64,000 nucleotides of DNA. It comes from Glaucostegus cemiculus (Eukaryota). Positions 691 through 62,200 of this stretch are shown here, piece by piece. The notes beneath the pieces were generated by a model that did not search any database, was not told the origin of the DNA, and was given only the letters and a program-made list of their open reading frames with translations. The stretch spans positions 1,178,001-1,242,000 of the forward strand of contig CDPCPM010000018.1 of the NCBI GenBank assembly GCA_976551045.1. Reading direction: 5' to 3'. The position numbers and the translations under genes are program-made. Numbering within the stretch: the stretch's first letter is position 1; every line of letters begins with the position of its first letter.

Positions 691-816
691 ACATCAATGA
701 ATGTGCAACCAACACATCAAACTGTCAACAAATCTGCACCAACACAATCGGAAGCTTCCTGTGCAGTTGTAACCCTGGCTTCAGTGTCAATGTGACCAAT
801 GCTTCGATTTGTGATG
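691..816 (+). CDS. cbEGF exon A (B-like upstream flank)
   Basis: AG/GT, 126 bp. Confidence 0.85.
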
Positions 817-3800
817 GTAGGAATATGCAAAGTCATTGTTTCCAGCAGATTGCAAAGAATATTGAATGTGGCAGTTGGGTCCCATAGATTCTCCTACTCT
901 CTGAACGAAATGAATTCTGCTACCGCAACAATGAAAGATACAGAATATCAGTTCATCCTCAGTCAGTTATCACTATTGAGATATTTCTGCAGCAGAAAGA
1001 ATATTAAATTGAAGGAAAATCAAAATATCTGAAGGAATGAAAGTTTCCACAATTATTAATCCTGTGTTTTTGAATTCCAAATTGTGAATTGCCAATTTAC
1101 ACAATGGCTTGTATTTCACAAAAGACAGTGTAAAGTGTGCAGGCATTCTGACGTGAATGATCATCGTAGTGAAGAGTGTCATGGGCTCAGGTGGTTAAGT
1201 TGTGTCATGTCAAAGTAATACTTTTGAGGAAGGTAATGCAAGTATTGTCATGCACCTGTAAAGTCATATCATATTCTCCATACTCTGTCACCATATTGAG
1301 CAAAAAAGTTTCAGCCGGCAATTACAAATGACATAAATGTGATTGGATAAAAGTGATTGAGATGTCGTTCCATTATTCCCCGTAGACATTGATGAATGTG
1401 CAACCAACACATCAAACTGTCAACAAATTTGCAGCAACACAATTGGAAGCTTCCTTTGCGGATGTAATCCAGGCTACAGTATCAACGTGACCAATAGTTC
1501 AGTTTGTGATGGTGAGATATTTCCCAATCATTTATTTTCTCAGACTTGGAAAATAATATTAAATGTGTCATTTAAAGTTAAGGTGGTCCAGGAATGAACA
1601 CAGTCACATAAATATTGGATAAATGGCTAAGGCTTTTTCTTTCGATTCCACTGTGCAGCGAAAACTTTACTTCTGTTCAATTGTAAAAGTCAGGGACCTC
1701 TATCTGACCATTGGTTGCAAAAGATCAAAATTCGTTTCATGTTATCCTGTGAATTATAAAAGTAGAAGAGGCAGTATGTCATAACACAGCCATATCAGCA
1801 AAGGAAATGTAAACTTCAAACTACTCTGTTGCCAACGATGAATGTCACGTAGATTGTATATATTCAGCTGGTAATGGTGTGTAATATAGGGGAAATATAT
1901 TTTGAGAATCATTGCTCTGTACTCTGTATTGTTACTGTGCAGGGCATCCTTAAGTCTATTGTAAAGTTTCCACAATTTTTAATCCTGTGTTTTTGAATTC
2001 CAAATTGTGAATTTCCAATTTACACAATGGCTTGTATTTCACCAAAGACAGTGTAAGATGTGTAGGCATTCTGATGTGAATGATCATTGTAGTGAAGAGT
2101 GTCATGGGCTCACGTGGTTAAAGTTGTGTCATGTCAAAGTAATACTTTTGAGGAAGGCAATGCAAGTATTGTCATGCACCTGTAAAGACATATCATATCC
2201 TCCATACTCTGTCACCATATTGAGCAACAAAGTTTCAGCCGGCCATTACAAATGACAAAAAAGTGATTGGATAAAAGTGATTGAGATGTCGTTCCATTAT
2301 TCCCCGCAGACATCGATGAATGTGCAACCAACACATCAAACTGTCAACAAATTTGCAGCAACACAATTGGAAGCTTCCTTTGCGGATGTAATCCAGGCTT
2401 CAGCATCAATGTGACCAATAGTTCAGTTTGTGATGGTGAGATATTTCCCAATCATTTAATTGCTCAGACTTGGAAAATAACATTAAAAGTGCTATTTAAA
2501 GTTAAGGTGGTCCAGGAATGAATACAGTAACATTAATATTGGATGAAAGGCTAGAGATATTCCTTTTGATTCAACTGTGTTGCGAAAACTTTATTTACAA
2601 CGTGGTAACAGGCCCTTTCGGCCCAATGAGTCTGCGCCACCCATTTTAAACCCCCAAATTAACCTACCCGTACGTCTTTTAGAATGTGGGAGGAAACCGA
2701 AGCACCCGGAGGAAACCCACGCAGACACGGGAGGACGTACAAACTCCTTACAGTCAGCGCCGGGAATCGAACCCCAATCGCTGGCGCTGTAACAGCGTCG
2801 CGCTAACCACTATGCTATCGTGCCACCCCCAAATGAATGCAGTCACATTAAATTGGATGAAAGGCTAGATATTTTTCTTTTGATTCCACTGTGCAGTGAA
2901 AACTTTACTTCAGTTCAATTGTAAAAGTCAGGGACCTCTAACCGACCATTGGTTGCAAAAGATTAAAATTCGTTTCATGTTATCCTGTGAAATATAAAAG
3001 TAGAAGCGGCAATGTCACATAGATTCAATAAACGTAGCTGGAGATGGATTGTAATATCATGGAAATATATTTTGAGTATCATTGCTCTCTACAGTTGTTA
3101 CTGTGCAGGGCATCCTTAACGCCATTGTAGAGCATAACATTTATTGAGAGACTTCCTGTTGGCACAAGGTAACTAGTAAGCAAGTGTTTGACAGGTCATT
3201 CACATTTTTCCTCCAGACATTGATGAATGTGCAACCAACACATCGAACTGTCAACAAATCTGCACCAACACAATCGGAAGCTTCCTGTGCAGTTGTAACC
3301 CTGGCTTCAGTGTCAACGTGACCAATGCTTCGATTTGTGATGGTAGGAATATACAAAGTCATATTTTCCAGCAGATTGCAAAGAATATTGAATGTGGCAG
3401 TTGGGTCCCATAGATTCTCCGACTCTCTGAACCAAATGAATACTGCTAGCGCAACAATGAAAGATCAAGAATATCATTCCATCCTCAGTCAGTTTTCACT
3501 ATTGAGATATTTCTGCAGCAGAAGATGAATGTCAGATAGATTGCATAAATCAGCTGGTGATGGTTTGTAATATCAGGAAAGTATCTTTTGAGAATCATTG
3601 ATCTGCACTTTGCATTGTTACTGCGGAGGGCATCCTTAAGTCTATTGTAGAGCAGAACATTTATTCAGAGACTTCCTGTTGACAGAAGGTAACTCGTAAG
3701 CAAGTGTTTGTCAGGTCATTGACTTCTTTTCCTCCAGACATTGATGAATGTGCAACCAACACATCGAACTGTCAACAAATCTGCACCAACACAATCGGAA

Positions 3801-6800
3801 GCTTCCTGTGCAGTTGTAACCCTGGCTTCAGTGTCAACGTGACCAATTCTTCGATTTGTGATGGTAGGAATATGCAAATTCATAGTTTCCAGCAGATTGT
3901 AAAGAATATTGAATGTGGCAGTTGCGTCGCGTAGATTCCCCTACTCTCTGAACCAAATGAATTCTGCTACCGCATCAATGAAAGATAAAGAATATCAGTT
4001 CATCCTCAGTTAGTTTTCACTATTGAGATATTTCTGCAGCAGAAAGAATATTAAAAAATAAGGGAAAATCATAATATCAGAAGGAAGGAAAGATTCCACA
4101 ATTTCTAATCCTGTGTTTTTGAATTCCAAATTGTGAATTTCCAATTTACACAATGGCTTGTATTTCACGAAAGACAGTGTAAGATGTGTAGGCATTCTGA
4201 CGTGAATGATCATCGTAGTGAAGAGTGTCATGGACTCAGGTGGTTAAGTTGTGTCATGTCAAAGTAATACTTTTGAGGAAGGTAATGCAAGTATTGTCAG
4301 GCACCTGTAAAGACATGTCATATTCTCCATACTCTGTCACCCTATTGAGCAACAAATTTTCAGCCGGCAATTGCAAATGACATAAAAGTGGTTGGATAAA
4401 AGTGATTGAGATATTGTTCCATTATTCCCCGTAGACATAAATGAATGTTCAACCAACACATCAAACTGTCAACAAATTTGCAGCAACACAAATGGAAGCT
4501 TCCTTTGTGGATGTAATCTAGGCTTCAGCATCAATTGTGACCAATAGTTCAGTTTGTGATGATGAGATATTTCCCAAGACATTTATTTTCTCTGACTTGG
4601 AAAATAAAATTGAATGTGTCATTTAAAGTCAAGGTGGTCCAGGAATGAACAGTCACATTAAAATTGGATGAAAGGCTAGAGATTCTCCTTTTGATTCCAC
4701 TGTGCAGCGAAAACTTTAATTCAGTTGAATTGTAAAAGTCAGGGACCTCCAACCGACCATTGGCTGTAAAAGATCAAAATTCGTTTCATGTTATCCTGTG
4801 AATGATAAAAGTAGAAGCGGCAATGTCACATAGATTCAATAAACTTAGCTGGTGATGGTTTGTATTATAATGGAAATATATTTTGAGTATCATTGCTCAC
4901 TACTGTTGTTACTATGCAGGGCATCCTTAAGTCTATTGTAGAGCATAACATTTATTGAGAGACTTCCTGTTGGCATAAGGTATCAAGTAAGCAAGTGTTT
5001 GACAGGTCATTCACATTTTTCCTCCAGACATTGATGAATGTGCAACCAACACATCGAACTGTCAACAAATCTGCACCAACACAATCGGAAGCTTCCTGTG
5101 CAGTTGTAACCCTGGCTTCAGTGTCAACGTGACCAGTGCTTCAATTTGTGATGGTAGGAATATGCAAAGTCATAGTTTCCAGCAGATAGCAAAGAATATT
5201 GAATGTGGCATTTGTGTCCCATAGATTCTCCTACTCTCTGAACCAAATGAATTCTGCTAGCGCAACAATGAAAGATAAAAAATATCATTTCATCCTCAGT
5301 CAGTTTTCACTATTGAGATATTTCTGCAGCAGAAAGAATATCAACAAATACAGGAAAATCATAATATCGGAAGGAAGGAAAGTTTATGCTATTTCTAATC
5401 CTGTGTTTTTGAATTCCAAATTGTGAATTTCCAATTTACACAATGGCTTGTATTTCACGAAAGGCAGTATAAGATGTATAGGCATTCTGACGTGAATGAT
5501 CATCGTAGTGAAGAGTGTCATGGTCTCAGGTGGTTAAGTTGTGTCATGTCAAATTAATACTTCTGAGGAAGGCAATGCATGTATTGTCATGCACCTGTAA
5601 AGACATATCATATTCTCCATACTCTGTCACCATATTGAGCAACAAAGTTTCAGCCGGCAATTACAAATGACATAAAAGTGATTGGATAAAAGTGATTGAG
5701 ATGTCGTTCCATTATTCCCCGCAGACTTCGATGAATGTGCAACCAACACATCAAGCTGTCAACAAATTTGCAGCAACACAATTGGAAGCTTCCTTTGCGG
5801 ATGTAATCCAGGCTACAGCATCAATGTGACCAATAGTTCAGTTTGTGATGGTGAGATATTTCCCAACCATTTATTTTCTCTGATTTGGAAAATAAAATTG
5901 AATGTGTCATTTAAAGTCAAGGTGGTCCAGGAATGAACACTGTCACATTAAAATTGGATGAAAGGCTAGAGATTATCCTTTTAATTCAACTGTGCAGTGA
6001 AAACTCTAATTCAGTTCAATTGTAAAAGTCAGGGACGTCTAACCAACCATTGGTTGCAAAATATCAAAATTCGTTTCTTGTCATCCTGTGAATGATAAAA
6101 GTAAAAGCGGCAATGTCACATAGATTCAATAAACTTAGCTGCTGATGGTTAGTATTATAATGGAAATATATTTTGAGAATCATTGCTCTCTACTGTTGTT
6201 ACTGTGCAGGGCATCCTTCACGCCATTGTTGGGCAGAATATTTATTGAGAGACTTCCTGTTGGCATAAGGTAACTAGTAAGCAAGTGTTTGACAGGTCAT
6301 TCACATTTTTCCTCCAGACATTGATGAATGTGCAACCAACACATCGAACTGTCAACAAATCTGCACCAACACAATCGGAAGCTTCCTGTGCAGTTGTAAC
6401 CCTGGCTTCAGTGTCAACATGACCAATGCTTCGATTTGTGATGGTAGGTAAATGCAAATTCATAGTTTCCAGCAGATTGCAAAGAATAGTGAATGTGGCA
6501 GTTGGGTCCCATTGATTCTCCTACTCTCTGAACCAAATGATTTCTGCTCCCGCAACAATGAAAGATAAAGAATATCATTCCATCCTCAGTCAGTTTTCAG
6601 TACTGAGATATTTCTGCAGCAAAAGATGAATGTCACATAGATTGCATAAATCAGCTGGTGATGGTTTGTAACATCATGGAAGCATCTTTTGAGAATCATT
6701 GCTCTGTACTCTGCATTGTTAATGTGCAGGGCATCCTTAAGTCTATTGTAGAGCAGAACATTTATTGCGAGACTTCCTGTTGGCAGAAGGTAACTAGTAA

Positions 6801-9800
6801 GCAAGTGTTTGACAGGTCATTCACTTCTTTTCCTCCAGACATTGATGAATGTGCAACCAACACATCAAACTGTCAACAAATCTGCACCAACACAATCGGA
6901 AGCTTCCTGTGCAATTGTAACCCTGGCTTCAGTGTCAACGTGACCAATGCTTCGATTTGTGATGGTAGGAATACGCAAATTGATAGTTTCCAGCAAATTG
7001 CAAAGAATATTGAATGTGGCAGTTGGGTCCCATAGATTCTCCTACTCTCTGAACCAAATTAATTCTGCTACCACAACAATGAAAGATACAGAATATCAGT
7101 TCATCCTCAGTCAGTTTTCACTGTTGAGATATATCTGCAGCAGAAAGAATATTAAAAAATAAAGGAAAATCAAAATATCGGAAGGAAGGACAGTTTCCCC
7201 AATTTTTAATCCTGTGTTTTTGAATTCCAAATTGTGAATTTCCAATTTATACAATGGCTTGTATTTCACGAAAGACAGTGTAAAGTGTGTAGGCATTCTG
7301 ACATGATTGATCATCGTAGTGTAGAGTGTCATGGGCTCAGGTGGTTAAGTTGTGTCATGTCAAAGTAATACTTTTGAGGAACGCAATGCAAGTATTGTCA
7401 TGCAGCTGTAAAGACATATCATATTCTCCATACTCTGTCACCATATTGAGCAACAAAGATTCAGCCGGCAATTACAAATGACATAAAAGTGATTGGATAA
7501 AAGTGATTGAGATGTCGTTCCATTATTCCCTGCAGACATTGATGAATGTGCAACCAACACATCAAACTGTCAACAAATTTGCAGCAATTCAATTGGAAGC
7601 TTCCTTTGCGGATGTAATCCAGGCTACAGTATCAACGTGACCAATAGTTCAGTTTGTGATGATGAGATATTTCCCAACCATTGATTTTCTCAGACTTGGA
7701 AAATAACATTAAATGTGTCATTTAAAGTTAAGGTGGTCCAGGAATGAACACAGTCACATAAATATTGGATAAATAGCTAGAGCTTTTTCTTTCGATTCCA
7801 CTGTGCAGTGAAAACTTTACTTCAGTTCAATTGTAAAACTCAGGGACCTCTATCTGAACATTGGTTGCAAAAGATCAAAATTCGTTTTATGATATCCCAT
7901 GAATTATCAAAGTACTCTGTTGCAAATGATGAACGTCACATAGATTGTATATATTCAGCTGGTAATGGTGTGTAATATAGGGGAAATATATTTTGAGAAT
8001 CATTGCTCTGTACTCTGCATCGTTACTGTGCAGGGCATCCTTAAGGCTATTGTAGAGCAGAACATTTATTGAGAGACTTCCTGTTGGCAGAAGGTAACAA
8101 GTAAGCAATTCTTTGACAGGTCATTGACTTCTTTTCCTCCAGACATTGATGAATGTGCAACCAACACATCGAACTGTCAACAAATCTGCACCAACACAAT
8201 CGGAAGCTTCCTGTGCAGTTGTAACCCTGGCTTCAGTGTCAACGTGACCAATACTTTGATTTGTGACGGTAGGAATATATAAAGTCATAGCTTCCAGCAG
8301 ATTGCAAAGGGCTCTACTCATTAGAGAGGAGGAGGATGAGAGGGGACTTGATAGAGGTGTTTAAGATATTGAGAGGAATAGATAGAGTTAATAGTCAGCG
8401 CCTCTTTCCCAGAGCGCAGATGCTCAAGACGAGAGGGCATGCCTTTAAGATAATAGGTGGAAAGTATAGGGGAGATGTCAGAGGGAAGTTTTTCACCCAG
8501 AGAGTAGTTGGTACATGGAATGCACTGCCTGGGGTGGTAGTGGAGGTAGATACGTTGGACAGGTTTAAGAGATTGTTAGATAAGCACATGGAAGAATGTG
8601 GAATAGTAGGATATGAGGGTGGAAAGAGTTAGTTTGGGAGATGTTTGTAGGATGGCACAGCTTGATGGGCCGAAGGGCCTGTTCTGTGCTGTATTGTTCT
8701 ATTGTTCTATTGTTCTGTTGTTCTAATATTGAATGTGGCAGTTGGGTCCCATAGATTCTCCTACTCTCTGAACCAAATGAATTCTGCTACCGCAACAATG
8801 AAAGATACAGAATATCAGTTCATCCTCAGTCAGTTTTCACTATTGAGATATTTCTGCAGCAGAAAGAATATTAAAAAATGAAGGAAAATCATAATATCTG
8901 AAGGAAGGAATGTTTCCACAATTTTTAATCCTGTGTTTTTGGATTCCTAATTGTGAATTTCCAATTTACACAATGGCTTGTATTTCACGAAAGAGAGTGT
9001 AAGATGTGTAGGCATTCTGACGTGAATGATCATCGTAGTGAAGAGTGTCATGGGCTCACGTGGTTAAGTTGTGTCATGTCAAAGTAATACTTCTGAGAAA
9101 AGCAATGCAAGTATTGTCATGCACCTGTAAAGATAAATATCATACTCCCCATACTCTGTCACCATATTGAGCAACAAAGTTTCAGCCGGCAATTACAAGT
9201 GACATAAAAGTGATTGGATAAAAGTGATTGAGATGTCGTTCCATTATTCCCCGCAGACATCGATGAATGTGCAACCAACACATCAAACTGTCAACAAATT
9301 TGCAGCAACACAATTGGAAGCTTCCTTTGCGGATGTAATCCAGGCTACAGCATCAATGTGACCAATAGTTCAGTTTGTGATGGTGAGATATTTCCCAATC
9401 ATTTATTTTCTCAGACTTAAAATATAACATTAAATGTGTCGTTTAAAGTTAAGGTGGTCCAGCCATGAATACAGTCACATTAATATTGGATGTAAGGCTA
9501 GAGATTTTTATTTTGATTAAACTGTGCAGCGAAAACTTTACTTCAGTTCAATTGTAAAAGTTAGGGACCTCTATCCGACCATTGGTTGCAAAAGGTCAAA
9601 TTTCGTTTTATGTTATCCCGTGAATTATAGAAGTAGAAGCGGCAGTATGTCATAACACAGCCATATCGGCAAAGGAACTGTAAACTTTAAAGTACTCTGT
9701 TGCCAATGATGAATGTCACGTAGATTGTATATATTCAGCTGGTAATGGTGTGTAATATATGGGAAATATATTCTTTCTTTTTCAATCTTTTTATTGATAA

Positions 9801-12800
9801 CAAATCAATACAGGTTAAGATATATAACAACAATGTTTCACATGTATTATAGAAATATCAAGTAATAATTGTAGTTAATCATGAAAAAAGCGATAAAGTA
9901 TGATATATATAAAAGAAAGTTCCAAGAATCTCTCGGTTCATAAGTGTAATGTAAAAGATAGAAAAGAAAAAGATTTGTTATATGATTAGAAAAAAATACC
10001 CCCCAAAAAAACCCAAATCAATAAAAAAAGATCAGAATAATATAGAGTAAATTAAACCGAAAATGAATTTAAAAAAAGGACAAAAAAACCAAAACAATGA
10101 AAAAAAAAACTGGGCTAAAATTTTCAACAGAAATAGAGCAATATGATGTAGTCAGCTCTGTTTCTCTAAATTTAAAAAAAAAAGTTGTAGAAGGGGAAAC
10201 TACAACATATGGAAGTATTGAACAATGGACTCCAAATAGCTTCAAGCTTAAGCTAAGAATCAACAGTACCACTCCTAATTTTTTCCAAATTAAGACATGA
10301 TATATTTTGAGAGAACCATTGAAAGGAGGTAGGGGGTATTGGATTCTTCCATTTAAGCAGAATGGCTCGTTTGGCCATCAATGTAACAAAAGCAATCATA
10401 CAGTTAGCAGAAGCAGGTAAATGGCCAGACTTTATCCATGGAAATCCAAAAATTGCAGTAATAGGGTGAGGTTGTAAATCGATCTTCAATACATCAGAAA
10501 TTATATTAAAAATGTCTTTCCAATATTTTCGCAAATAAGGACATATATATTTTGAGAAACATTGCTCTGTACTCTGCATTGTTACTGTGCAGGGCATCCT
10601 TACGTCTAATGTAGAACATAACATTTGTTGAGAGACTTCCTGTTGGCATAAGGTAACAACTAAGCAAGTGTTTGACAGGTCATTCACTTCTTTTCCTCCA
10701 GACATTGATGAATGTGCAACCAACACATCAAACTGTCAACAAATCTGCACCAACACAATCGGAAGCTTCCTGTGCAGTTGTAACCCAGGCTTCAGTGTCA
10801 ACGTGACCAATGCTTCGATATGTGATGGTAGGAATATGCAAAGTCATAGTTTCCAGCAGATTGCAAAGAATATTCAATGTGGCAGAAGGGTCCCATAGAT
10901 TCTCCTACTCTCTGAACCAAATTAATTCTGCTACCGCAACAATGAATGATAAAGAATATCAGTTCATCCTCAGTCAGTTTTCACTATTGAGATATTTCTG
11001 CAGCAGAAAGAATATTAAAAAATAAAGGAAAATCAAAATATCAGAAGGAAGGACAGTTTCCACAATTTTTAATCCTGTGTTTTTGAATTCCAAATTGTGA
11101 ATTGCCAATTTACACAATGGCTTGTATTTCATGAAAGACAGTGGAAAGTGTGTAGGCATTCTGACGTGAATGATCATCGTAGTGAAGAGTGTCATGGGCT
11201 CAGGTGGTTAAGTTGTGTCATGTCAAAGTAATACTTTTGAGGAACGCAATGCAAGTATTGTCATGCAGCTGTAAAGACATATCATATTCTCCATACTCTG
11301 TCACCATATTGAGCAACAAATTTTCAGCCGGCAATTACAAATGACATAAAAGTGATTGGATAAAAGTGATTGAGATGTCGTTCCATTATTCCCTGCAGAC
11401 ATTGATGAATGTGCAACCAATACATCAAACTGTCAACAAATTTGCAGCAACACAATTGGAAGCTTCCTTTGTGGATGTAATCCAGGCTACAGCATCAATG
11501 TGACCAATAGTTCAGTTTGTGATGGTGAGATATTTCCCAACCATTTATTTTCTCAGACTTGGAAAATAACATTAAATGTGTCATTTAAAGTTAAGGTGGT
11601 CCAGGAATGAACACAGTCACATAAATATTGGATAAATGGCTAGAGCTTTACCTTTCGAATCCACTGTGCAGTGAAAACCTTACTTCAGTTCATTTGTAAA
11701 AGTCAGGGACCTGTATCCGAACATTGGTTGCAAAAGATCAAAATTCGTTTCATGTTATCCTGTGAATGGTAAAAGTAGAAGCGGCAGTATGTTATAACAC
11801 AGCCATATCAGTCAAGGAAATGTAAACTTCAGAGTACTCTGTTGCCAACGATGAATGTCACGTAGATTGTATATATTCAGCTGGTGATGGTGTGTAATAT
11901 AGGGGAAATATATTTTGAGAATCATTGCTCTGTACTCTGCATCGTTACTGTGCAGGGCACCTTAAGGATATTGCAGAGCATAACATTTATTGAGAGACTT
12001 CCTGCTGGCAGAAGGTAACTGGTAAGCAAGTGTTTGACAGGTCATTGAGTTCTTTTCCTCCAGACATTGATGAATGTGCAAGCAACACATCGAACTGTCA
12101 ACAAATCTGCACCAACACAATCGGAAGCTTCCTGTGCAGTTGTAACCCTGGCTTCAGTGTCAACGTGACCAATGCTTTGTTTTGTGATGGTAGGAATATG
12201 CAAAGTCATAGTTTCCAGCAGATTGCAAAGCATATTGAATGTGGCAGTTGGGTCCCATAGATTCTCCTACTCTCTGAACCAAATGAATTCTGCTACCGCA
12301 ACAATGAAAGATACAGAATGTCAGTTCATCCTCAGTCAGTTTTCACTATAGAGATATTTCTGCAGCAGAAAATGAATGTCACATAGATTGGATAAACTCA
12401 GCTAGTAATGGTTTGTAATATCATGGAAGTATCTTTTGAGAATCATTGCTCTGTACTCTGCATTGTTACTGTGCAGGGCTTCCTTAAGTCTATTGTAGAG
12501 CAGAACATTTATTGAGAGACTTCCTGTTGGCAGAAGGTAACTAGTAAGCAATTCTTTAACAGGTCATTGACTTCTTTTCCTCCAGACATTGATGAATGTG
12601 CAACCAACACATCGAACTGTCAACAAATCTGCACCAACACAATCGGAAGCTTCCTGTGCAGTTGTAACCCTGGCTTCAGTGCCAACGTGACCAATGCTTT
12701 CATTGGTGATGGTAGGAATATGCAAAGTCATAGTTTCCAGCAGATTGCAAAGAATATTCAATGTGGCAGTTGGTCCCACAGATTCTCCAACTCTCTCAAC

Positions 12801-33800: not shown

Positions 33801-35239
33801 AAAGACATATCTTATTCTCCATACTCTGTCACCATATTGAGCAAAAAAGTTTCAGCCGGCAATTACAAGTGACATAAATGTGATTGGATAAAAGTGATTG
33901 AGATGTCGTTCCATTATTCCCCGCAGACATCGATGAATGTGCAACCAACACATCAAACTGTCAACAAAATTGCAGCAACACAATTGGAAGCTTCCTTTGC
34001 GGATGTAATCCAGGCTACAGCATCAATGTGACCAATAGTTCAGTTTGTGATGGTGAGATATTTCCCAACCATTTATTTTCTCTGACATGGAAAATATAAC
34101 TGAATGTGTCATTTAAAGTCAAGGTGGTCCAGGTTTGAACACAGTCACATTAAAATTGGATGAAAGGCTAGAGATTTTCCTTTCGATTCCTCTGTGCAGC
34201 CAAAAATTTAATTCAGTTCAATTGTAAAAGTCCTGGACCTCTATCTGAGCATTGGTTGCAAAAGATCAAAATTCGTTTCATGTTATCCTGTGAATTATAA
34301 AAGTAGAAGTGGCTATGTCAAATAAATTCAATAAACTTAGCTGCTGATGGTTTTTATTATAATGGAAATATAGTTTGAGAATCATTGCTCTCTACTGTTG
34401 TTACTGTGCAGGGCATCCTTCACGCCATTGTAGAGCATAACATTTATTGAGAGTCTTCCTCTTGGCATAATGTAACTAGTAAGCAAGTGTTTGACATGTC
34501 ATTCACATTTTTTCTCCAGACATTGATGAATGTGCAACCAACACATCGAACTGTCAACAAATCTGCACCAATAGAATCGGAAGCTTCCTGTGCAGTTGTA
34601 ACCCTGGCTTCAGTGTCAACGTGACCAATGCTTCGATTTGTGATGGTAGGAATATGCAAAGTCATAGTTTCAGGCAGATTGCAAAGAATATTGAATGTGG
34701 CAGTTGGGTCCCATAGATTCTCCTACTCTCTGAACCAAATGAATTCTGCTAGCGCAACAATGAAAGATACAGAATATCAGTTCATATTCAGTCAGTTTTC
34801 ACTATTGAGATATTTCTGCAGCAGAAAGAATATTAAAAATTAAGGAAAATTATAATATCTGAAGGAATGAATGTTTCCACAATTTTTAATCCTGTGTTTT
34901 TGAATTCCAAATTGTGAATTTCCAATTTACAGAATGGCTTGTATTTCACGAGAGACAGTGTAAGATGTGTAGGCATTCTGATGTGAATGATCATCGTAGT
35001 GAAGAGTGTCAAGGGCTCAGGATGTTAATTCGTGTCATGTCAAATTAATACTTCTGAGGAAGACAATGCAACTATTCTCATGCACCTGTAAAGACATATC
35101 ATATTCTCCATACTGTTATGAAGTAGCTTACTATAGGCCAATATCCCTTTTAGATGGGACATCGTGAGTGTGTGCAACGTATTACGTCAACAGAAGATAA
35201 GACTAACGTGATGAGGTCATTACAAGAAAGAAAAAGATA

Positions 35240-35270
<31 letters not shown>

Positions 35271-47200: not shown

Positions 47201-50200
47201 CCTTTGCGGATGTAATCCAGGCTACAGCATCAATGTGACCAATAGTTCATTTTGTGATGGTGAGGTATTTCCCAAACATTTATTTTCTCTGACTTGGAAA
47301 ATCAAATTGCATATGTCGCTTAAACTAAAGTGGTCCTGGAATGAATACAGTCACATTAAAATTGGATGAAAGGCTAGAGAATTTCCTTTTTATTCCACTG
47401 TGCAGCGAAAACTTTACTTCAGTTCAATTGTAAAAGTCAGGGACCTCTAACCCACCATTGGTTACAAAAGATCAAAATTTGTTTCATGTTATCCTGTGAA
47501 TGATAAAAGTAGAAGCGGCAATGACACATAGATTCAATAAACGTAGCTGGTGATGGTTTGTAATATCATGGAAATATATTTTGAGAATTATTGCTCTCTA
47601 CTGTTGTTACTATGCAGGGCATCCTTATGGCTATTGTAGAGCATAACATTTATTGAGAGACTTCCTGTTGGCATAAGGTAACTCGTAAGCAAGTGTTTGA
47701 CAGGTCATTGACTTCTTTTCCTCCAGACATTGATGAATGTGCAACCAACACATCGAACTGTCAACAAATCTGCACCAACACAATCGGAAGCTTCCTGTGC
47801 AGTTGTAACCCTGGCTTCAGTGTCAACGTGACCAATGCTTCGATTTGTGATGGTAGGAATATGCAAATTCATAGTTTCCAGCAGAGTGTAAAGAATATTG
47901 AATGTGGCAGTTGCGTCGCGTAGATTCCCCTACTCTCTGAACCAAGTGAATTCTGCTACCGCGTCAATGAAAGATAAAGAATATCAGTTCATCCTCAGTT
48001 AGTTTTCACTATTGAGATATTTCCGCAGCAGAAATAATATTAAAAACTAAAGGAAAATCATAATATCAGAAGGAAGGAAAGTTTCCACAATTTCTAATAC
48101 GGTGTTTTTGAATTCCATATTGTGGATATCCAATTTACACAATGGCTTGTATTTCATGAAAGACAGTGTAAGATGTGTAGGCATTCTGAAGTGAATGATC
48201 ATCGTAGTGAAGAGTGTCATGGGCTCAGGTGGTTAAGTTGTCTCATGTCAAAGTAATACTTTTGAGGAAGGTAATGCAAGTATTGTCTTGCACCTGTAAA
48301 GACATATCCTATTCTCCATTGTCTGTCACCATATAGAGCAACAAAGTTTCAGCCGGCAATTACAAATGACATAAAAGTGATTGGATGTTCAGTTTGTGAT
48401 GGTGAGATATTTCCCAACCATTTATTTTCTCAGACTTGTAAAATGAAATTGAATGTGTCGTTTAAAGTCAAGGTAGTCCAGGAATGAACACATTCTCATT
48501 AAAATTGGATGAAAGGCTAGAGATTTTCCTTTTGATTCCACTGTGCAGCGAAAACTTTACTTCAGTTCAATTGTAAAAGTCAGGGACCTCTAACCGACCA
48601 TTGGTTGCAAAAGATCAAAATTCGTTTCATGTTATCCTGTGAATGATAAAAGTAGCAGCGGCAATATCACATAGATTCAATAAGCTTAGCTAGTGATGGT
48701 TTGTAATATCATGGAAATATATTTTGAGAATCATTGCTCTGTACTCTGCATTGTTACTGTGCAGGGCATCCTTAAGTCTATTGTAGAGCAGAACATTTAC
48801 TGAGAGACTTCCTGTTGGCAGAATGTAACTAGTAAGCAAGTGTTTGACTGGTTATTGACTTCTTATCCTCCAGACATTGTTGAATGTGCAACCAACACAT
48901 TGAACTGTCAACAAATCTGCACCAACACAATCGGAAGCTTCCTGTGCAGTTGTAACCCTGGCTTCAGTGTTAACGTGACCAATGCTTCGATTTGTGATGG
49001 TAGGAATATGCAAATTCATAGTTTCCAGCAGATTGCATAGAATATTGAACGTGGCAGTTGGGTCCCATAGATTCTCCCTCTATCTGAACCACGTGAATTC
49101 TGCTACCGCAACAATGAAAGATAAAGAATATCAGTTCATCCTCAGTCAGTTTTCACTATTGAGATATTTCTGCAGCAGAAAATGAATGTCACATAGATTG
49201 CATAAATCAGTTGGTGATGGTTTGTAATATCATGGAAGTATCTTTTGAGAATCATTGCTCTGTACTCTGCATTGTTACTGTGCAGGGTATCCGTAAGTCA
49301 ATAGTAGAGCAGGACATTTACTGAGAGACTTCCTGTTGGCATAAGGTAACTCGTAAGCAAGTGTTTGACAGGTCATTGACTTCTTTTTCTCCAGACATTG
49401 ATGAATGTGCAACCAACACATCGAACTGTCAACAAATCTGCACCAACACAATCGGAAGCTTCCTGTGCAGTTGTAACCCTGGCTTCAGTGTCAACGTGAC
49501 CAATGCTTCGATTTGTGATGGTAGGAATATGCAAATTCATAGTTTCCAGCAGAGTGTAAAGAATATTGAATGTGGCAGTTGCATCGCGTAGATTCCCCTA
49601 CTCTCTGAACCAAGTGAATTCTGCTACCGCGTCAATGAAAGATAGAGAATATCAGTTCATCCTCAGTTAGTTTTCACTATTGAGATATTTCCGCAGCAGA
49701 AATAATATTAAAAAATAAAGGAAAATCATAATATCAGAAGGAAGGAAAGTTTCCACAATTTCTAATCCTGTGTTTTTGAATTCCAAATTGTGAATCTCCA
49801 ATTTACACAATGGCTTGTATTTCACCAAAGACAGTGTAAGATGTGTAGGCATTCTGACGTGAATGATCATCGTAGTGAAGAGTGTCATGGGCTCACGTGG
49901 TTAAGTTGTGTCATGTCAAAGTAATACTTTTGAGGAAGGTAATTCAAGTATTGTCAGGCACCTGTAAAGACATATCATATTCTCCATACTCTGTCACCCT
50001 ATTGAGCAACAAATTTTCAGCCGGCAATTACAATAGACATAAAAGTGATTGGATAAAAGTGATTGAGAAATCGTTCCATTATTCCCCGTAGACATCGATG
50101 AATGTTCAACCAACACATCAAAGTGTCAACAAATTTGCAGCAACACAATTGGAAGCTTCTTTTGCGGATGTAATCCAGGCTTCAGCATCAATGTGACCAA

Positions 50201-53200
50201 TAGTTCAGTTTGTGATGATGATATATTTCCCAATACATTTATTTTCTCTGACTTGTAAAATAAAATTCAATGTGTCATTTAAAGTCAAGGTGGTCCAGCA
50301 ATGAACACAGTCACATTAAAATTGGATGAAAGGCTAGAGATTCTCCTTTAGATTCCACTGTGCAGTGAAAACTTTAATTCAGTTGAATTGTAAAAGTCAG
50401 GGACCTCTAACCGACCATTGGCTGCAAAAGATCAAAATTCGTTTCATGTTATCCTGTGAATTATAAAAGTAGAAGCGGCAATGTCACATCGATTCAATAA
50501 ACTTAGCTGGTGATGGTTTGTATTATAATGGAAATATATTTTGAGAATCATTGCTCTCTACTGTTGTTACTGTGCAGGGCATCCTTAACGCCATTGTAGA
50601 GCATAACATTTATTCAGAGACTTCCTGTTGGCATAAGGTAACTAGTAAGCAAGTGTTTGACAGGTCATTCACATTTTTCCTCCAGACATTGATGAATGTG
50701 CAACCAACACATCGAACTGTCAACAAATCTGCACCAACACAATCGGAAGCTTCCTGTGCAGTTGTAACCCTGGCTTCAGTGTCAACATGACCAATGCTTC
50801 GATTTGTGATGGTAGGAATATGAAAATTCATAGTTTCCAGCAGATTTATAGCATATTGAATGTGGCAGTTGGGTCCCATAGATTCTCCTGCTCTCTGAAC
50901 CAAATGAATTCTGCTACCGCAACAATGAAAGATACAGAATATCAGTTCATCCTCAGTCAGTTTTCACTATTGAGATATTTCTGCAGCAGAAAGAATATTA
51001 AAAAATAAAGGAAAATCACAATATCTGAAGGAATGAAAGTTTCCACAATATTTAATCCTGTGTTTTTAAATCCACATTTTGGATTTCCAATTTATGCAAT
51101 GGCTTGTATTTCATGAAAGACAGTGTAAGATGTGTAGGCACTCATACGTGAATGTTCATCGTAGTGAAGAGTGTCATGGGCTCCCGTGGTTCAGTGGTGT
51201 CATGTCAAATTAATACTTTTGAGGAAGGCAATGCAAGTATTGTCATGCACCTGTAAAGTCATATCATATCCTCCATACTCTGTCACCATATTGAACAACA
51301 AAGTTTCAGCCGGCAATTACAAATGACATAAAAGTGAATGGATAAATGTGATTGAGATGTCGTTTCATTATTCCCCGCAGACATCGATGAATGTGCAACC
51401 AACACATCAAACTGTCAACAAATTTGCAGCAACACAATTGGAAGCTTCCTTTGCGGATGTAATCCAGGCTACAGCATCAATGTGACCAATAGTTCAGTTT
51501 GTGATGGTGAGATATTTCCCAATCATTTATTTTCTCAGACTTGGAAAATAACATTAAATGTGTCGTTTAACGTTAAGGTGGTCCAGGAATGAATACAGTC
51601 ACATTAAAATTGGATGAAAGGCCAGACATTTTTATTTTGATTCCACAGTGCAGCTAAAACTTTACTTCAGTTGAATTGTAAAAGTTAGAGACCTCTATCC
51701 GACCATTGTTTGCAAAAGATGAAAATTCGTTTTATGTTATCCTGTGAATTATAAAAGTAGAAGCGGCAGTATGTCATAACACAGCCATATCAGCCAAGGA
51801 AATGTAAATGTTTAAGTACTCTGTTGCCAATGATGAATGTCACGTAGATTGTGAATATTCGGCTCGTAATGGTGTGTAATATAGGGGAAATATATTTTGA
51901 GAATCATTGCTCTGTACTCTGCATTGTTACTGTGCAGATCATCTTTAAGGCTATTGTAGAGCACAACATTTATTGAGAGACTTCCTGTTGGCATAAGGTA
52001 ACTAGTAAGCAATGTTTGACAGGTCATTCACTTCTTTTTCTCCAGACATTGATGAATGTGCAACCAACACATTGAACTGTCAACAAATCTGCACCAACAC
52101 GATCGGAAGCTTCCTGTGCAGTTGTAACTCTGGCTTCAGTGTCAGTGTGACCAATGATTCGATTTGTGATGGTAGGTATATATATAGTCATAGTTTCCAG
52201 CAGATTGCATAGAATATTGAATGTGGCAGTTTGGTCCCATAGATTCTCCTACTGTATAAACCAAATGAATTCTGCTACCATAACAATGAATGATAAAGAA
52301 TATCAGTTCTTCTTCTGTCAGTCTTCACTTTAGAGATGTTTGTGCAGCAGAACAAATATTAAATAATAAAGGTAAATATTAACATCTGAAGGACTGAAGG
52401 CTTCCTTTGCGGATGTAATCCAGGCTTCAGCATCAACGTGACCAATAGTTCCGTTTGTGATGGTGAGATGTTTCGCAGTTCTTTTCTTGTATTTGCAAAA
52501 TCAAATTGAAGAAATTTGAAATTGTGGTGGACCACTTTTGAAATTGAGATGGACCAGGAATGAAGTTAGTCACATTAATATTTGATGAAAAAGGATACTT
52601 CTTTCTCTGTAATGCTATGGCCTAGTTATTAATTTAATGCTGAATTAATTTTGAAAATCAAAGTATAATGTTTTATCTTATGGTAGTTAAGAATCTAAAT
52701 TCTCTGCATGTTACCCTGTGAAATACAACTGCAATTCACTTCATTACTGCCATTTTACCAAACGGTATGGAAACTTCAATGTACTCTGTTGCCATTCTGA
52801 ACATAGAGAATAGTGGCACAAAGTCAGTTCATAATGGTTTATATTGTCACGGAAATATAGTTGAGAAGCACTGCTCCATACAGTGTGTTGCCACTGTACA
52901 GGGCATCCTGAAATCTATTGTAGATCAGAATGTTAATTGAGAAAGTTCCTGCTGGCAAAGGGAAATGCTAAACAAATGTTTGATATGTCATGCACTTCTT
53001 TTCCTCTAGACATTGATGAATGTGCCACCAACATATCCAACTGTCAACAAATCTGCACCAACACAATCGGAAGCTTCATTTGCAGTTGTAATCCTGGGTT
53101 CTGCAGCAACCTGGACAACCCTTCAATTTGTGATGGTAGTAATTTACAAGCTCATTGTTTCTCACAGAGTGCAAAGAATATTAAATGTGGTAATTGGGCC

Positions 53201-56200
53201 ACATAGGTTATTGTGCCCTGTGAACTAAATGAATTCGGGCACCTTAATAATGAATTAAGAAGAATATCAGTTCATTCTAAGTGAATATTCACTATAGATA
53301 TGTTTCTAATTTCCAGTTTTTATTTCTGAGTCAGTGAATTTCAAATTGTGAATTTCCATTTTTCAATATTTCTTGAATTTCACCAAAGGCAATTTATAAT
53401 TTTCAAGTACTGTGACTTTAATGATCAATGTAACCAAGAATGTCATGTACTCACTTGGTTATTTTGTGTGATGTCAAAGTAATTTTTTTGAGGTAGGCAG
53501 GTGTATTGATTACTTTGCACCTGTTAAGGCACATCATATTCTCTGTAGTATTTCATGATATTGAGAGACAAAATTTCAGCTGTCAAATACAAATGACATA
53601 AAAGTGATTGGATAAAAGTGATTGAGATGTTGTTCCACTATTCACTGCAGACATCGATGAATGCGCAACCAACACATCAAACTGTCAACAAGTCTGCACC
53701 AACACAATTGGAAGCTTCATGTGCAGTTGTAATCCAGGCTTCAGCATCAACGTGACCAATACTTCAGTTTGTGTTGGTGAGGTTATGCCCAAACATTTAT
53801 TTTCTCAGATTTTGAAATTGAAGTTTAATGTGTCTTTTGAAATTGAGGTGGTCCAGAAATGAATTTAGTCACATTAATATTTGATGAAAAATGATATATT
53901 TTCTTTCTCTGTGATATTTCAGTGCAGCAATAAATATACTACAGCTTAGTTTTAAGACTCACGGAAAAATGTCCTACCTTATGGTTGGTAAACTTCAAAA
54001 AACTTTTAAAGTTTACCTCTGAATTATAATGTAATACCTGCAGTTTATAATAATACTGGCATTTCACCAAAGGCTAAGTAAAATTCAAATTACTTTGTTG
54101 CCAATGATCAATGTCACAAAGGTGGCTTAAACTCAGCTGGTAGTGGTTTGTAAAGCCATGGAAATGTATTTTGAGAAGCATTGTTCCATACACTGGATTG
54201 TCACTGTGCAGGGCAACCTTAAATCCATTGTAGATCAGAAGATTTATTGAGAGAGTTCCTGCTGGGAAAGGGCAAATGCTAAGCAAGTATTTGATATGTC
54301 ATTCACTTCTTTCCCTCCAGACATTGATATTAAGAAATAGATGTAAATGATAATATCTGAAGGAAGTTATATTTCCACAATTATTATTCATGAGTCAGCA
54401 AATTCAAAAATCATGAACTTCCATTTTACAGCATTCGTTGAATTTCACCAAAGGCAGTTTAACATGTGAAAGTACTGTGACGTTAATGATCAAGATGTCC
54501 AAGAGTGTCATGCACTCACCTGGTTGTGTTTTGCAATGTCAAAGTAAGACCTTTGAGGAAGGCAGGTGTAAGGATTGTCTTGAACCTGTAAATTCACATT
54601 ATATTCTCTATAGCTTTTCACGATAGTATGAGAGAAAATTTCAGCTGGTAAACAATGACACAGAAGTGATTGGAAAGAAGTGAATGAGACGTCATTCCTT
54701 TATTCCCTGCACACATCGATGAATGCGCAACCAACACATCAAACTGTCAGAATTAGAATCAGAATTAGAATCAGTTTTATTGTCACAACCATATACACAT
54801 ATACAGTATGCATAGGAGCGAGATACCGTCCTCCACAGGTGCACGTCACATTAAGTATTAAACAGAAGAGACACACAGACACACATTGAAAAAGAACATT
54901 AAAACCACGAAAATGAATTTAAATTCTGCAGCTTAAATAAATAGTTTTAAAATGAGTGAACCGTCAACAAATCTGCACCAACACAATTGGAAGCTTCATG
55001 TGCAGTTGTAAACCAGGCTTCAGCGTCAACATGAACAATACTTCAGTTTGTAATGGTGAGATGTTTCACAAATATATCTTCTTTCAAGTGTGGAAAATAA
55101 AATTTAATGTGTCTTTTAAAACTGAGGTAGTTCAGAAATGAATCTTATGTCTCATTAATGCAATATGTCATTCAATCAACTCATCGAAATGTGAACAAAT
55201 CTGCACCAACACAATCGGAAGCTTGCTGCACAGTGGCTTCAGCACCAACGTGACCAGTACTTAGATTTGTGATGGAAGGAAGTGGCAAACTCTGTTTCTC
55301 ATACATTGCAAAGAATATTCAATGTGGCAGTTGGGCCTCATAGATTATTGTGCCCTGTGAACTAATTTGATTCTGATATCAGTTGATCCTCAATGTGCCT
55401 TCAATATAGAGTTGTCTCTATGGCAAAAGGAATATTCAGAAATAGAGGTAAATGATAATATCTGAAGGAAGGTAAATTTCAACAATTTTTATTCATGAGT
55501 CAGTGAATTTCAAACTGTGAATTTCCATTTTCAACACTGCTTGAATATCACCAAAGGCAGTTTATATAGTGTGATGTTAGTGATCAAAGTAGCCAAGAGT
55601 GCCATACACTCACCCGGTTATGTTATGCAATGTCAAAGTAATACTCTTGTGGAAGGCAGGTGTATTGATAGTCTTGCCCCTGTAAAGATACATCATACAG
55701 GCTGAAGATAATCAATACTATTTCATAACATTAAGAGACAAATTTTTAGTTGGCAAAGACAAATGACATAAAAATGATTGGATAAAAGTGATTGGATAAA
55801 AGTGATTGAGATGTTGTTCCGTTATGTACTGCAGATATCGATGAATGTGCAACAAAAACATCAAACTGTCAACAAATTTGCAGCAACACAATTGGAAGTT
55901 TCATGTGCAGTTGTAATCCAGGCTTCAGCATCAACGTGACCAATAGTTCAGTTTGTGATGGTGAGATGTTTCCTAAACATTAATTTTTTTGGATATGGAA
56001 AATAAAATTTAATGTGTCTTTTAAACCTGTGAACCAGAAGTGAATTTTAGTCATGTTAATATTGGAAAACAATATCTTTTCTTTCTCTGTGACTCTGCAG
56101 TATAGTCACTAATCCTTGACAGTTTAATTTTAAAAATCAAGGTAAAATGTCCTACCTGATGGTATTTAAACTTCTAAAATCTCTTCATGTTATCCTGTGA

Positions 56201-59200: not shown

Positions 59201-62200
59201 AATGATTCATTTCTTCCCCTGTGATACCTCATAATAGTGATATGTTACCACAGAAATATTTATTAAAATCATGTTAAAATGTCATATATTATGACAGTTA
59301 AACTTCTAATATCTATTCATGTTATCCTGTGAAATATTAATCTTATACCAGCAGTATATAATAATTGTGCCACTTCACCAAAGGGTATGTAAACTTTACA
59401 ACATTGATTATTGGCATTAAAGTATTTTGAAGAGTGGCACACACTCACTTGGTAATGATGTGTAATGTCAGGAAAATATAGTTGAGAATCACTGCTCCAT
59501 ACACAGTGCTGCCACTGTACAGTGCATTCTGAAATCTATTGTGGATCAGAACATCAATGGACAGAGTTTCTGTTGATGAAGGCAAATTCTAAGCAAGTTT
59601 AAAATGTCATTCACTCCTTTTCCTCCAGACGTCGATGAATGTGCAACCAACACATCGAACTGTCAACAAATCTGTACCAACACGATTGGAAGCTTCATCT
59701 GCAGTTGTAACCCTGGCTTCAGCATCAATGTGTCCAATACTTCGCTTTGTGATGGTGGGATGTTTTGCAAACTCATGTTTTCTCAGATTCAGTAAAAAAA
59801 AAATTTAATGTGGCAGCTCTGACTGTCTTTTAAAAATGAGATGTTCCTAAAATCACAAAAAGTCACCTTAAAATTGGATGAAATTGGATATCATTTCTTT
59901 TTTTCTGTGATACATCACAGCAGTGATATGTTACCACAGAATTAATTATTAAAATCAATGTAGAATCTCATATCTTATGGTTTATAAACTTCTAAAATCT
60001 CTTGAAGGAAAAAAAACAAGATGCTGGAGGAACTCAGCAGGTTAGGCAGCATCCATGGAGAAAAGCAGTCAACGTTTTGGGTCAGGACCCTTCTTCAGGA
60101 CTTAAGATAGGAAAAGGGGAAAACAAAGCAGTGATAGTTGGACAAAAGAAGGGAGGCAGGGTGGGCACAAGGTGGTGATAAGTAGATACAGCTAAGAGGT
60201 AGTGATAAGCAAATGTGGGGGAGGAGGGGAGAGCAGATCCAGCAGGGGATGGGTCAAAGCTATTGAGGCAGGCGCCCCATGGGGAGAGGGGAGGAGAAAA
60301 AAGTGATAGGCTAGGAAATGGAAAAAATTAGAAGATGCATGGTGGGGGTCGGAGGGGATGGTTTACTTAAGGTGGGAGAATTCAATGTTCATGCCATTAG
60401 GCTGTAAGGTCCCAATCAGGGTAAACTGTTGAATGTTTAGCAAGTAAATCTTCCACAATTCTTCACATTACCCTGTGAAATCTGGTAATGAAACCTGAAT
60501 TTTTCAATATTTTGACCATTTCACCATAGGGTATAAAATCTTGATAGTACTGTGATGCCAATGATCAAAATTAGCAATGATTGGCACAAACTCAGCTGGT
60601 AATGTAATGTCAAAGCAATATTTTTGAGAAACACAGTTCCATATACCATGTTGCCTCTGGACGGTGACATCCTGTAGTCTTTTATAGATCAGAATATTAA
60701 CTGACAGTCATTCAGTTGGGAAAAACAAACAATGTTGACCTTTGACCTCCCAACCTTCATCCCCCCCCCCCCACTAAAAACACACACACACACACTCTGA
60801 CTATCCCCAATTTTTATGTTACTTCCATGGCAATCTTTGTTGCTGTACTGCGATGGGCAAGGATCTTATAAGCGCTGACACACTATCAGTTGGCAATGAC
60901 ACAGCAGCTGCGAGCTCTGGATTGACATCCTGCAGAGATTCCATTTTAGCGCATGAATGGGAGTGCTAAATGCCGTAGCAACATTCTTCATTTATTTTTG
61001 GTCAATTTTGTGTATTTTGGGGGGAAATGGAAGATATTAGCAACACCTACAGCACACATTTCATGCACCAAGATGGTGAACTCCAGTTTCTCAGGTTATA
61101 CATTCTGTAATAAGAATATTATATTGCAGAATTGAGTCATTCTTGTCATTAAGGAGGTTGAAAGTTTTGACTATATCATAACCTTTCTAAAAAAAGTTTG
61201 CAGTTCCTGAGTTTCAATTTCTCAATGAAATTGTCATATGATATGCATATTGTCTTGAAAGTTCTATATTGATAAAGTTATGTGAAGAAAATAATAACCA
61301 ATAGTAGTCATTTGATATCTGGCTTTGCCTTGCTGGGAGGCAGTGGTCATGGGGTCAGTCAGTCCTTTCAGAGTAACCTAAGCAAATAAATGGAGTGCAA
61401 TGGAGTTTAAGATATTGAGAGGAATAGATAGAGTTAATAGTCAGCGCCTCTTTCCCAGAGTGCAGATGCTCAAGACGAGAGGGCATGCCTTTAAGATAAT
61501 AGGTGAAAAGTATAGTGGAGATGTCAGAGGGAAGTTTTTCACCCAGAGAGTGGTTGGTGCATGGAATGCACTGCCTGGGGTGGTAGTGGAGGTAGATACG
61601 TTGGACAGGTTTAAGAGATTGTTAGATAAGCACATGGAAGAATGTGGAATAGTAGGATATGAGGGTGGAAAGAGTTAGTTTGGGAGATGTTTGTAGGATG
61701 GCACAGCTTGATGGGCCGAAGGGCCTGTTCTGTGCTGTATTGTTCTATTGTTCTATTGTTTGTTCATTTCGAACTCGGTACAGAGAACCACAATTCACCA
61801 GTGGTAAAGCAGGTGAATGCTTACTATGATCAGTAGGCTGTCAGTCAGGTGGGCTGCTTGGTACTGGATGATGTTGACTTTATTGAAAATTATTTCAGGA
61901 CTCATCCAGACAAGTGGAAAGAAGACAGGATGGCATCCCCAAACCCATGGATTCCAATGCATGATAAATTAGGAGGAGAGTCACTGGTTTGGGAATGGGA
62001 GGTGGTTGAGTGGCCGAGAATTGGAAGTAGGGTTGGCAGCAGAACTGAGGGTTGGTTCCTGATGATCAGAAGATATGTCAGCGATCATGGGTCTGGAGCA
62101 GAGGGTTGAGGTGAGGATTTCTTCAGGAGTTTTGTGGTTGTAGGGGATGATTACAGGTGGTGGCTGTTAGATTGGTAGTCATAGGTGGGAGTGGGGGTTG

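Follow-up and report, generated by a model that had tools for sequence, protein, structure and literature searches.

A tandem array of calcium-binding EGF exons in a putative secreted mucin gene of Glaucostegus cemiculus

The window analysed here, a 64,000-nucleotide (nt) stretch of the Glaucostegus cemiculus genome (contig CDPCPM010000018.1, positions 1,178,001 to 1,242,000; contig positions carry the prefix C18 below), contains 82 tandem copies of a 126-nt exon for a calcium-binding EGF (cbEGF) domain. We consider it probable that these exons form the EGF array of a likely secreted shark-or-ray mucin gene, and that unequal crossover lengthened this array while exon-centred gene conversion maintained its uniformity. 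An earlier reading of the letters, in the following referred to as the original prediction, had described the exons as frame-proof cassettes and proposed that protein length or composition is varied by exon skipping and copy-number change. Frame symmetry as such is textbook knowledge; what deserves attention is the gene and its evolution.

The exon array and the encoded domain

Array exon copies were identified by blastn, with one exon as query against the window. All 85 matches are located on the + strand, and 83 of them fall between positions 691 and 59754. These represent 82 copies, with the matches at 54713 and 54930 being the halves of one copy parted by an insertion; a fragment at ~160 is located outside this range. 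A search of the species' own genome gave 87 candidates, and the 40 that were scored all fall inside the window. Seventy-five copies are intact in the sense of being 126 nt long, preceded by AG, followed by GT and open in phase 1 (45 A-like, 30 B-like). They start with AC in 74 cases and with AT in one, invariably end on G, differ by no indel and comprise 37 distinct sequences. Each combines one domain per exon with phase 1-1 borders and a length divisible by three, and catshark models that include or lack the EGF exon bear out the split codon at the exon borders. The A exons are mostly preceded by the acceptor TTTTCCTCCAG (33/45) and followed by the donor GTAGGA (39/45), the B exons by ATTCCCCGCAG (24/30) and GTGAGA (25/30), respectively. 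This exon pattern is real and far above chance expectation. The prediction that all exons are symmetric 126-nt phase-1 cassettes has to be narrowed to these 75, as the other seven are broken: four of class B carry a GT-to-AT donor, one is a half copy, one is split by an insertion and one is decayed. Around the four dead donors, from -60 to +120 nt, no cryptic donor scored more than 2 bits. Likewise, the predicted class-specific splice sites describe the majorities given above, and the classes are not strict, as the A-type exon at 691 is a chimeric copy with a B-like acceptor.

The array exon encodes a cbEGF domain, for which calcium binding is predicted from sequence. The four exons tested all match the Pfam family EGF_CA (PF07645) with 37.6-42 bits at a cut-off of 27. 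Six cysteines are present in 73 of the 75 intact exons, and 74 each carry the acidic N-terminal calcium ligands and the beta-hydroxylation consensus (motifs taken from general knowledge). N-glycosylation sequons amount to 223 across the 75 repeats. The proteins closest to the repeat are from catshark (88%) and skate (76%), and a modelled catshark tandem pair (mean predicted local distance difference test score, pLDDT, of 67) matches EGF repeats of LRP2, Notch1, fibrillin-1 and EMR2. Among 196 proteins compared, a biased sample and no census, the longest uninterrupted cbEGF run counts 35 domains (40% mean identity), as opposed to ~76 here. As a separate observation, ten B copies (e.g. those at 15860, 17150 and 19730) share an Ile-to-Asn variant that creates a fourth N-glycosylation sequon and is spread through the core of the array.

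It was also predicted that any skipped subset of exons and any crossover product would stay in frame. This holds for any skipped subset of the 75 intact exons and for crossover in register. The symmetry is a known class 1-1 property and not special to the array, because it is general for EGF-type mobile modules and is present in all 44 other cbEGF exons found in the gene cluster (14 single ones and 30 of a MUC4-type array, see below), each with a phase-1 start and a same-phase donor after the last cysteine. It should be noted that the search for exon ends in the cluster was confined to the phase of the start; a control search there gave no cbEGF starts in phase 0 or phase 2. Nagy and Patthy are said to have described class 1-1 domains as general. 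In excerpts of PMC3927616, class 1-1 modules, EGF among them, have phase-1 introns on both sides, with tandem duplication via unequal crossover and loss via fixed skipping.

Exchange between units and exon-centred uniformity

The usual repeat unit spans 1.29 kb and consists of an A exon, a ~570-nt intron, a B exon and a ~467-nt intron, with A-A steps proceeding via a ~394-nt intron; the two introns of the A-B unit do not align to each other. All diversity figures refer to 24-25 canonical units only. The mean identity of the 25 canonical units is 94.7% (lowest 89.7%), and the unit pairs 17743/25233 and 19032/26522, offset by 7,490 bp, are 99.9% identical. The four-gamete test fails for 2,307 of 8,256 informative site pairs, and haplotypes switch inside units, giving mosaic units. 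Because of these failures and switches, repeated unequal exchange together with conversion is the best reading of how the array was shaped. Three of the four dead donors are found on one haplotype and probably represent a single mutation that was copied; one of these copies appears to have been frameshifted since, as expected of a skipped exon. With such signs of exchange in tandem, near-identical exon-plus-intron units, the locus resembles domain-level variable number tandem repeat (VNTR) genes of the LPA KIV-2 and DMBT1 type.

Shark homologue models contain 1-2 cbEGFs and the adjoining paralogue three, compared to 75 intact ones in the array. On these sequence comparisons the array is a lineage-specific expansion, and the low counts in homologues and paralogue, together with the near-identical units at a fixed offset, confirm the predicted change of germline copy number between lineages and paralogues. 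The class-specific splice sites are attributed to the A-B dimer having been copied together with its introns, and the chimeric copy at 691 indicates that splice sites travel with the intron. The suggestion that A and B are regulated as classes is therefore unsupported. Conversion from A to B found no support either, the A/B differences being scattered along the exon, and a role of exons as crossover hot spots was rejected given inconsistent linkage across exons. The depth of short-read contigs (47-94 on collapsed exons versus ~3-4 on unique flanks) is not a copy number and was not used.

The exons of the array are 3-7 times less diverse than its introns, fourfold sites included (0.015 for A and 0.021 for B exons versus 0.058 and 0.067 for introns), and no intron window of 126 nt is as uniform as the exons. 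At fourfold sites a diversity of 0.008 was obtained, with three alleles in 29 sites versus 0.37 per intron site; the corresponding P values of ~0.0006 and, for the core alone, 0.013 assume independent sites and are optimistic, as the sites are linked. Synonymous diversity (0.011-0.014) does not exceed non-synonymous diversity (0.016-0.019), so that selection at the codon level alone provides no explanation. When nine A exons behind the old A-A intron are compared to 24 behind the B-A intron, divergence is lowest in the exon (1.5%), rises to 6% over the adjacent 70 nt of intron and reaches 12-22% further away from the acceptor. This fade of uniformity over ~70 nt of intron fits conversion anchored on exons. 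The ratio of non-synonymous to synonymous differences per site (pN/pS) between A and B is ~0.18, and the canonical units show 13 distinct indels in introns and one in exons. The best reading of exon uniformity is DNA-level gene conversion anchored on the exons, with past selection having kept the exons alike while the introns drift.

RNA-templated conversion via complementary DNA (cDNA) was raised because synonymous sites are homogenised as well. It is disfavoured, as shared alleles run ~70 nt into the acceptor-side intron, and the lack of any precise intron loss among 84 intervals speaks against it, too; the jump in diversity right at the donors would still permit it. Independent of these considerations, transversions outnumber transitions in the introns of the 25 canonical units (232 to 156), compared to 14 and 25 in the exons.

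The host gene and the weighing of explanations

Apart from the window, the flanks C18:878,001-1,178,000 and C18:1,242,001-1,742,000 were examined. Upstream, an intact signal-peptide exon (L002:4054-4132) that ends in phase 1 and matches the one of the paralogue is found, as are Thr/Ser/Pro exons, 14 each of 192 and 177 nt and several single ones; the 28 repeated exons are without exception open and symmetric. Downstream, a C-terminal exon of 131 nt for a stub of ~42 residues (L011:5795-5925) is located outside the window, ~7 kb past the exon at 62521-62640. The catshark RefSeq models show signal, Thr/Ser/Pro, one cbEGF and stub in that order; in a zebra shark model and in an older model from catshark, the stub follows two cbEGFs. 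The signal peptide and the long Thr/Ser/Pro domain of a mucin in the broad sense are present, provided that the parts belong to one transcript, as suggested by their order and by the shark models. Because NIDO, AMOP and VWD matches to bullfrog MUC4 start only in the downstream MUC4-like gene (from C18:1.51 Mb on, in neighbouring genes), the host gene appears to be a MUC4-related but distinct mucin-like gene. If most intact exons are spliced in, the summed exons would encode ~5,400 residues. The stub has no family in Pfam (E up to 1), PDB or Atlas, and a word search with one stub was empty. A suggested likeness to the C-terminal tails of fish C-type lectins gave no more than a below-threshold Atlas match.

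In the proposed mechanism, unequal crossover between A-B repeat units would lengthen the EGF stretch and gene conversion centred on exons would keep it uniform. The product would comprise ~2,200 residues of O-glycosylated mucin followed by ~76 cbEGF domains with their 223 N-glycan sequons. Bound calcium would stiffen the cbEGF stretch into a rod of ~220 nm, based on 2.9 nm per cbEGF domain. Allelic and species differences would account for most of the variation in its length, by analogy to LPA KIV-2 and DMBT1, and skipping would be mostly passive, dead-donor copies being dropped with the frame kept. A role as spacer or scaffold in mucus is plausible, and nothing indicates that length is measured. 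According to excerpts of PMC10532229, the glycans of shark and skate skin mucus are mostly O-linked with few N-glycans, which does not favour skin mucus as the principal location of a rod rich in N-glycans. The main text of a shark skin proteome paper (PMC10707392) contains no mucin-4, fibrillin or EGF, and searches of the open-access literature yielded no publication about either the family or the array. A broader version, which we regard as unlikely, envisions an undescribed elasmobranch family of secreted mucins that couples an O-glycan domain to a calcium-stiffened, N-glycan-coated EGF rod, with symmetric exon arrays underlying both. Allelic variation combined with regulated skipping would then produce graded rods of anything between zero and ~76 domains (0-220 nm). 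The modules would stay interchangeable through exon-anchored conversion, and neighbouring MUC4 would have expanded this design on its own.

Several observations weigh against the proposed secreted mucin with exon-centred conversion. The 18 synonymous and 35 non-synonymous recent variants give no significant sign of purifying selection (P 0.06-0.16), with non-synonymous diversity (piN) equal to or above synonymous diversity (piS). The younger upstream array shows no exon-intron contrast (0.006 versus 0.005), the contrast in the MUC4 array is weak (0.021 versus 0.030), and no crossover hot spot was found at exons. The C-terminal exon is, at 131 nt, one nucleotide longer than its 130-nt counterpart in the paralogue, and a stop lies 3 nt ahead of a donor-like GT; short-read contigs, which may stem from the assembled sample, show no gap at this stop. 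It may alter the protein tail only, since three shark models end 8-14 residues past the same conserved point. Moreover, "secreted" is suggested by the absence of later exons and by predicted models with differing ends, and broken EGF exons are found 40 kb downstream.

The latter points bear on the possibility that the gene is decaying or dead, i.e. that it has lost its function, with recombination letting the array drift and the uniform exons being left over from conversion. The stop and the 1-nt length difference in the C-terminal exon, the seven broken copies among 82, a piN at or above piS and the broken EGF relics downstream would fit such a scenario. We nevertheless judge it improbable: the signal exon is intact, all 28 repeated Thr/Ser/Pro exons are open, and the shark models mentioned above end near the same point as the stub. 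No stop or indel occurs in the 75 EGF exons with intact splice sites, the sole frameshifted full copy has a dead donor, and the 13 distinct indels in introns face a single one in exons. The structure of the stub is also relevant to a membrane-tethered mucin, in which the stub would be the first exon of a SEA-like domain with the transmembrane exons missed, and the EGF array would serve as a stalk holding the mucin domain away from the cell. A conserved donor-like GT bounds the stub exon in both paralogues, the neighbouring MUC4 is of the membrane-tethered kind, and the ends of gene models can be read-through artefacts. Conversely, the stub has no Pfam match at the E value given above, the stop in the stub of the window gene precedes the donor-like GT, and no second exon conserved between the two paralogues was found after the stub. 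A scan of the flanks gave no convincing SEA-motif or transmembrane exon, although exons could be missed in such a scan, and we regard tethering as highly unlikely.

The ruler implied by the original prediction, in which cells choose the number of EGF exons, or A versus B, and thereby adjust how long a spacer is or what it is made of, is given no more credence than decay. Frame safety is real, dead-donor copies would need skipping, and A donors are weaker than B donors (2.5 versus 4.4 bits in a simple matrix). Among the catshark models, which are predictions, X6 joins a Thr/Ser/Pro exon to the stub with the EGF exon skipped in frame, and others differ by in-frame stretches; CD97 isoforms with 3-5 EGF repeats bind differently, as stated in excerpts of PMC9101421. 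However, the choice of class would change little, as the six residues that distinguish A from B are mostly conservative, and the class-specific sites are explained by the dimer copied with its introns. The 37 distinct sequences in 75 copies leave little for exon-specific regulation, and splicing plays a minor role in DMBT1, where four of five long transcripts carry the genomic repeat number (PMC9038570, in part). Finally, the over-expansion of a few exons by the assembler is very improbable. Many units are >99% alike, as such an artefact would suggest, but individual units diverge by 0.1-10%, show mosaic haplotypes and carry insertions of their own, and short-read contigs bridge unique junctions at the array edge with 0-1 differences. 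The secreted mucin with an array lengthened by crossover remains our preferred explanation.

The features of the window are compiled in Table 1. An insertion of ~1.45 kb with ~200-bp terminal inverted repeats is present in two copies in A-B introns (35111-36566 and 39144-40595) and is likely a non-autonomous DNA transposon that was duplicated along with the unit. What we take to be a short interspersed nuclear element (SINE)-like insertion (~2600-2830) and a decayed CR1-type long interspersed nuclear element (LINE; ~56200-58650) are both intronic. In the intron at 52799, 7 nt of the assembly are absent from both short-read runs, which come from one sample, reflecting a second allele or an assembly difference.

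Table 1. Array features and single exons of the window (positions counted from its first letter)
Feature	Position	Strand	Evidence or remark
Tandem array, 82 copies of the 126-nt cbEGF exon, 75 intact (45 A, 30 B)	691..59754	+	blastn, Pfam EGF_CA
Modal class A exon	3217..3342	+	peptide common to 21/75 intact copies, three N-glycosylation sequons
B pseudoexon	4435..4561	+	dead donor G/AT, 1-nt insertion, stops
B copy, open frame	7536..7661	+	dead donor G/AT
Modal class B exon	9257..9382	+	18/126 nt off class A (10.5 synonymous, 7.5 non-synonymous)
Recently homogenised core	12586..45271	+	unit pairs 99.9% identical, 7,490-bp higher-order duplication
B copy	45843..45968	+	dead donor G/AT, intron haplotype same as unit holding 4435
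B copy	50092..50217	+	dead donor G/AT, haplotype same as 45843
Older 3' edge	52337..55274	+	broken 52337 (5' half missing), 54713/54930 and 55158 (decayed) amid intact diverged 53010 and 53651
Last cbEGF exon	62521..62640	+	divergent, intact, 120 nt, phase 1-1

At least five exon arrays have expanded in the surrounding cluster (Thr/Ser/Pro in three genes, cbEGF in two). The paralogue, 150 kb upstream (C18:1,024,400-1,063,300, L035-L039), has a signal exon, a Thr/Ser/Pro array, three intact and one broken cbEGF, and a 130-nt stub exon. Within C18:1,136,500-1,168,600 (L006-L010), the 192- and 177-nt Thr/Ser/Pro exons are arranged in a 1,663-bp dimer unit with >99% identity, and some of these units are lengthened by a LINE-like insert. 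A MUC4-like gene downstream (C18:1,343,000-1,640,000, L041-L072) contains two NIDO-AMOP-VWD blocks, short Thr/Ser/Pro exons arrayed over ~95 kb, among them a 63-nt symmetric type, and a separate cbEGF array at 1.458-1.495 Mb with at least 30 near-identical copies (27 of 126 nt and three of 129 nt). It also has a single 126-nt cbEGF exon of the array type, 62% identical to the catshark repeat. At L015:5942-6390, 40 kb beyond the stub, a frameshifted MUC4-type cbEGF exon is located beside a decayed array-exon copy; this is a relic of a MUC4-related segment. A second MUC4-like gene at C18:1,729,600-1,741,100 (L081-L082) shows a fibronectin-III-like exon (our own label, with no family match) and an EGF before NIDO, and the catshark model P0190 joins parts of the same kind to the stub instead. 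Upstream of the mucin cluster, adhesion G protein-coupled receptor exons for GPS and seven-transmembrane (7TM) parts are found at C18:907,000-921,000 (L023-L025).

Comparison with known systems

The locus can be described as an extreme domain-VNTR-type gene in an apparently uncharacterised shark-and-ray mucin family. It provides a clear natural case in which homogenisation of exons, even at their synonymous sites, outpaces that of the adjoining introns and falls off measurably within the intron. Fibrillin repeats are diverged and their cbEGF runs short, with 12 domains at most, in contrast to the near-identical repeats of the array, and TB (8-cysteine) domains of fibrillin/LTBP type gave no match in the window or flanks with TB-bearing proteins as queries. 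The array shares with fibrillin-1 cbEGF pairs with a short linker; in the excerpts of PMC7545174 calcium stiffens cbEGF runs into rods, a view qualified there by newer data. In-frame deletions of FBN1 are treated in PMC10337287, as far as its excerpts go. With the class 1-1 modules described in part in PMC3927616, the array has in common a domain-sized exon between phase-1 introns, and it is extreme in copy number and near-identity only.

CD97/ADGRE5 and EMR2 likewise have tandem cbEGF exons that are skipped in frame, resulting in isoforms of differing EGF number (excerpts of PMC9101421), and they are the top sequence match among solved structures. These receptors carry 3-5 distinct EGFs on a 7TM receptor, whereas the array has ~76 near-identical ones with no downstream GPS/7TM exon found; such matches are confined to C18:907-921 kb, upstream of both signal exons, so that the gene does not group with EGF-TM7 (ADGRE) receptors. 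MUC4, as represented by bullfrog mucin-4 (P0035) and the neighbour at C18:1.34-1.64 Mb, shares the signal, the Thr/Ser/Pro part, the 126-nt cbEGF type and the cluster, and the neighbour also has exon arrays. Unlike MUC4, the window gene ends in the stub of ~42 residues, and no NIDO, AMOP, VWD or transmembrane part was found in it. The closest sequences are predicted models with no described function, XP_072330233-42 (catshark), XP_059506809 (zebra shark) and XP_078266272 (skate). They contain 1-3 cbEGF domains; the skate and older catshark models are 76-88% identical to the repeat, and catshark and zebra shark share the C-terminal stub.

The SRCR repeats of DMBT1 (PMC9038570, in part) and KIV-2 of LPA (PMC4378929, in part) are, like the array, tandem near-identical domain exons with their introns in a gene for a secreted glycoprotein. 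In both, genomic copy number sets the length, and paralogous variants are spread by duplication or conversion. DMBT1 is the closest tested analogue: by analogy, length would be mostly genetic, as genomic copy number explains most of the protein size variation there (r2 0.75, in the excerpts of PMC9038570). If length in the window gene is indeed polymorphic or spliced, it would provide a simple system for the effect of rod length on a mucus layer. The array, known from one assembly, differs in its unit, a 1.29-kb A-B dimer of cbEGF exons, and in scale, with 75 domains compared to 8-14 in DMBT1 and up to 40 units in LPA.

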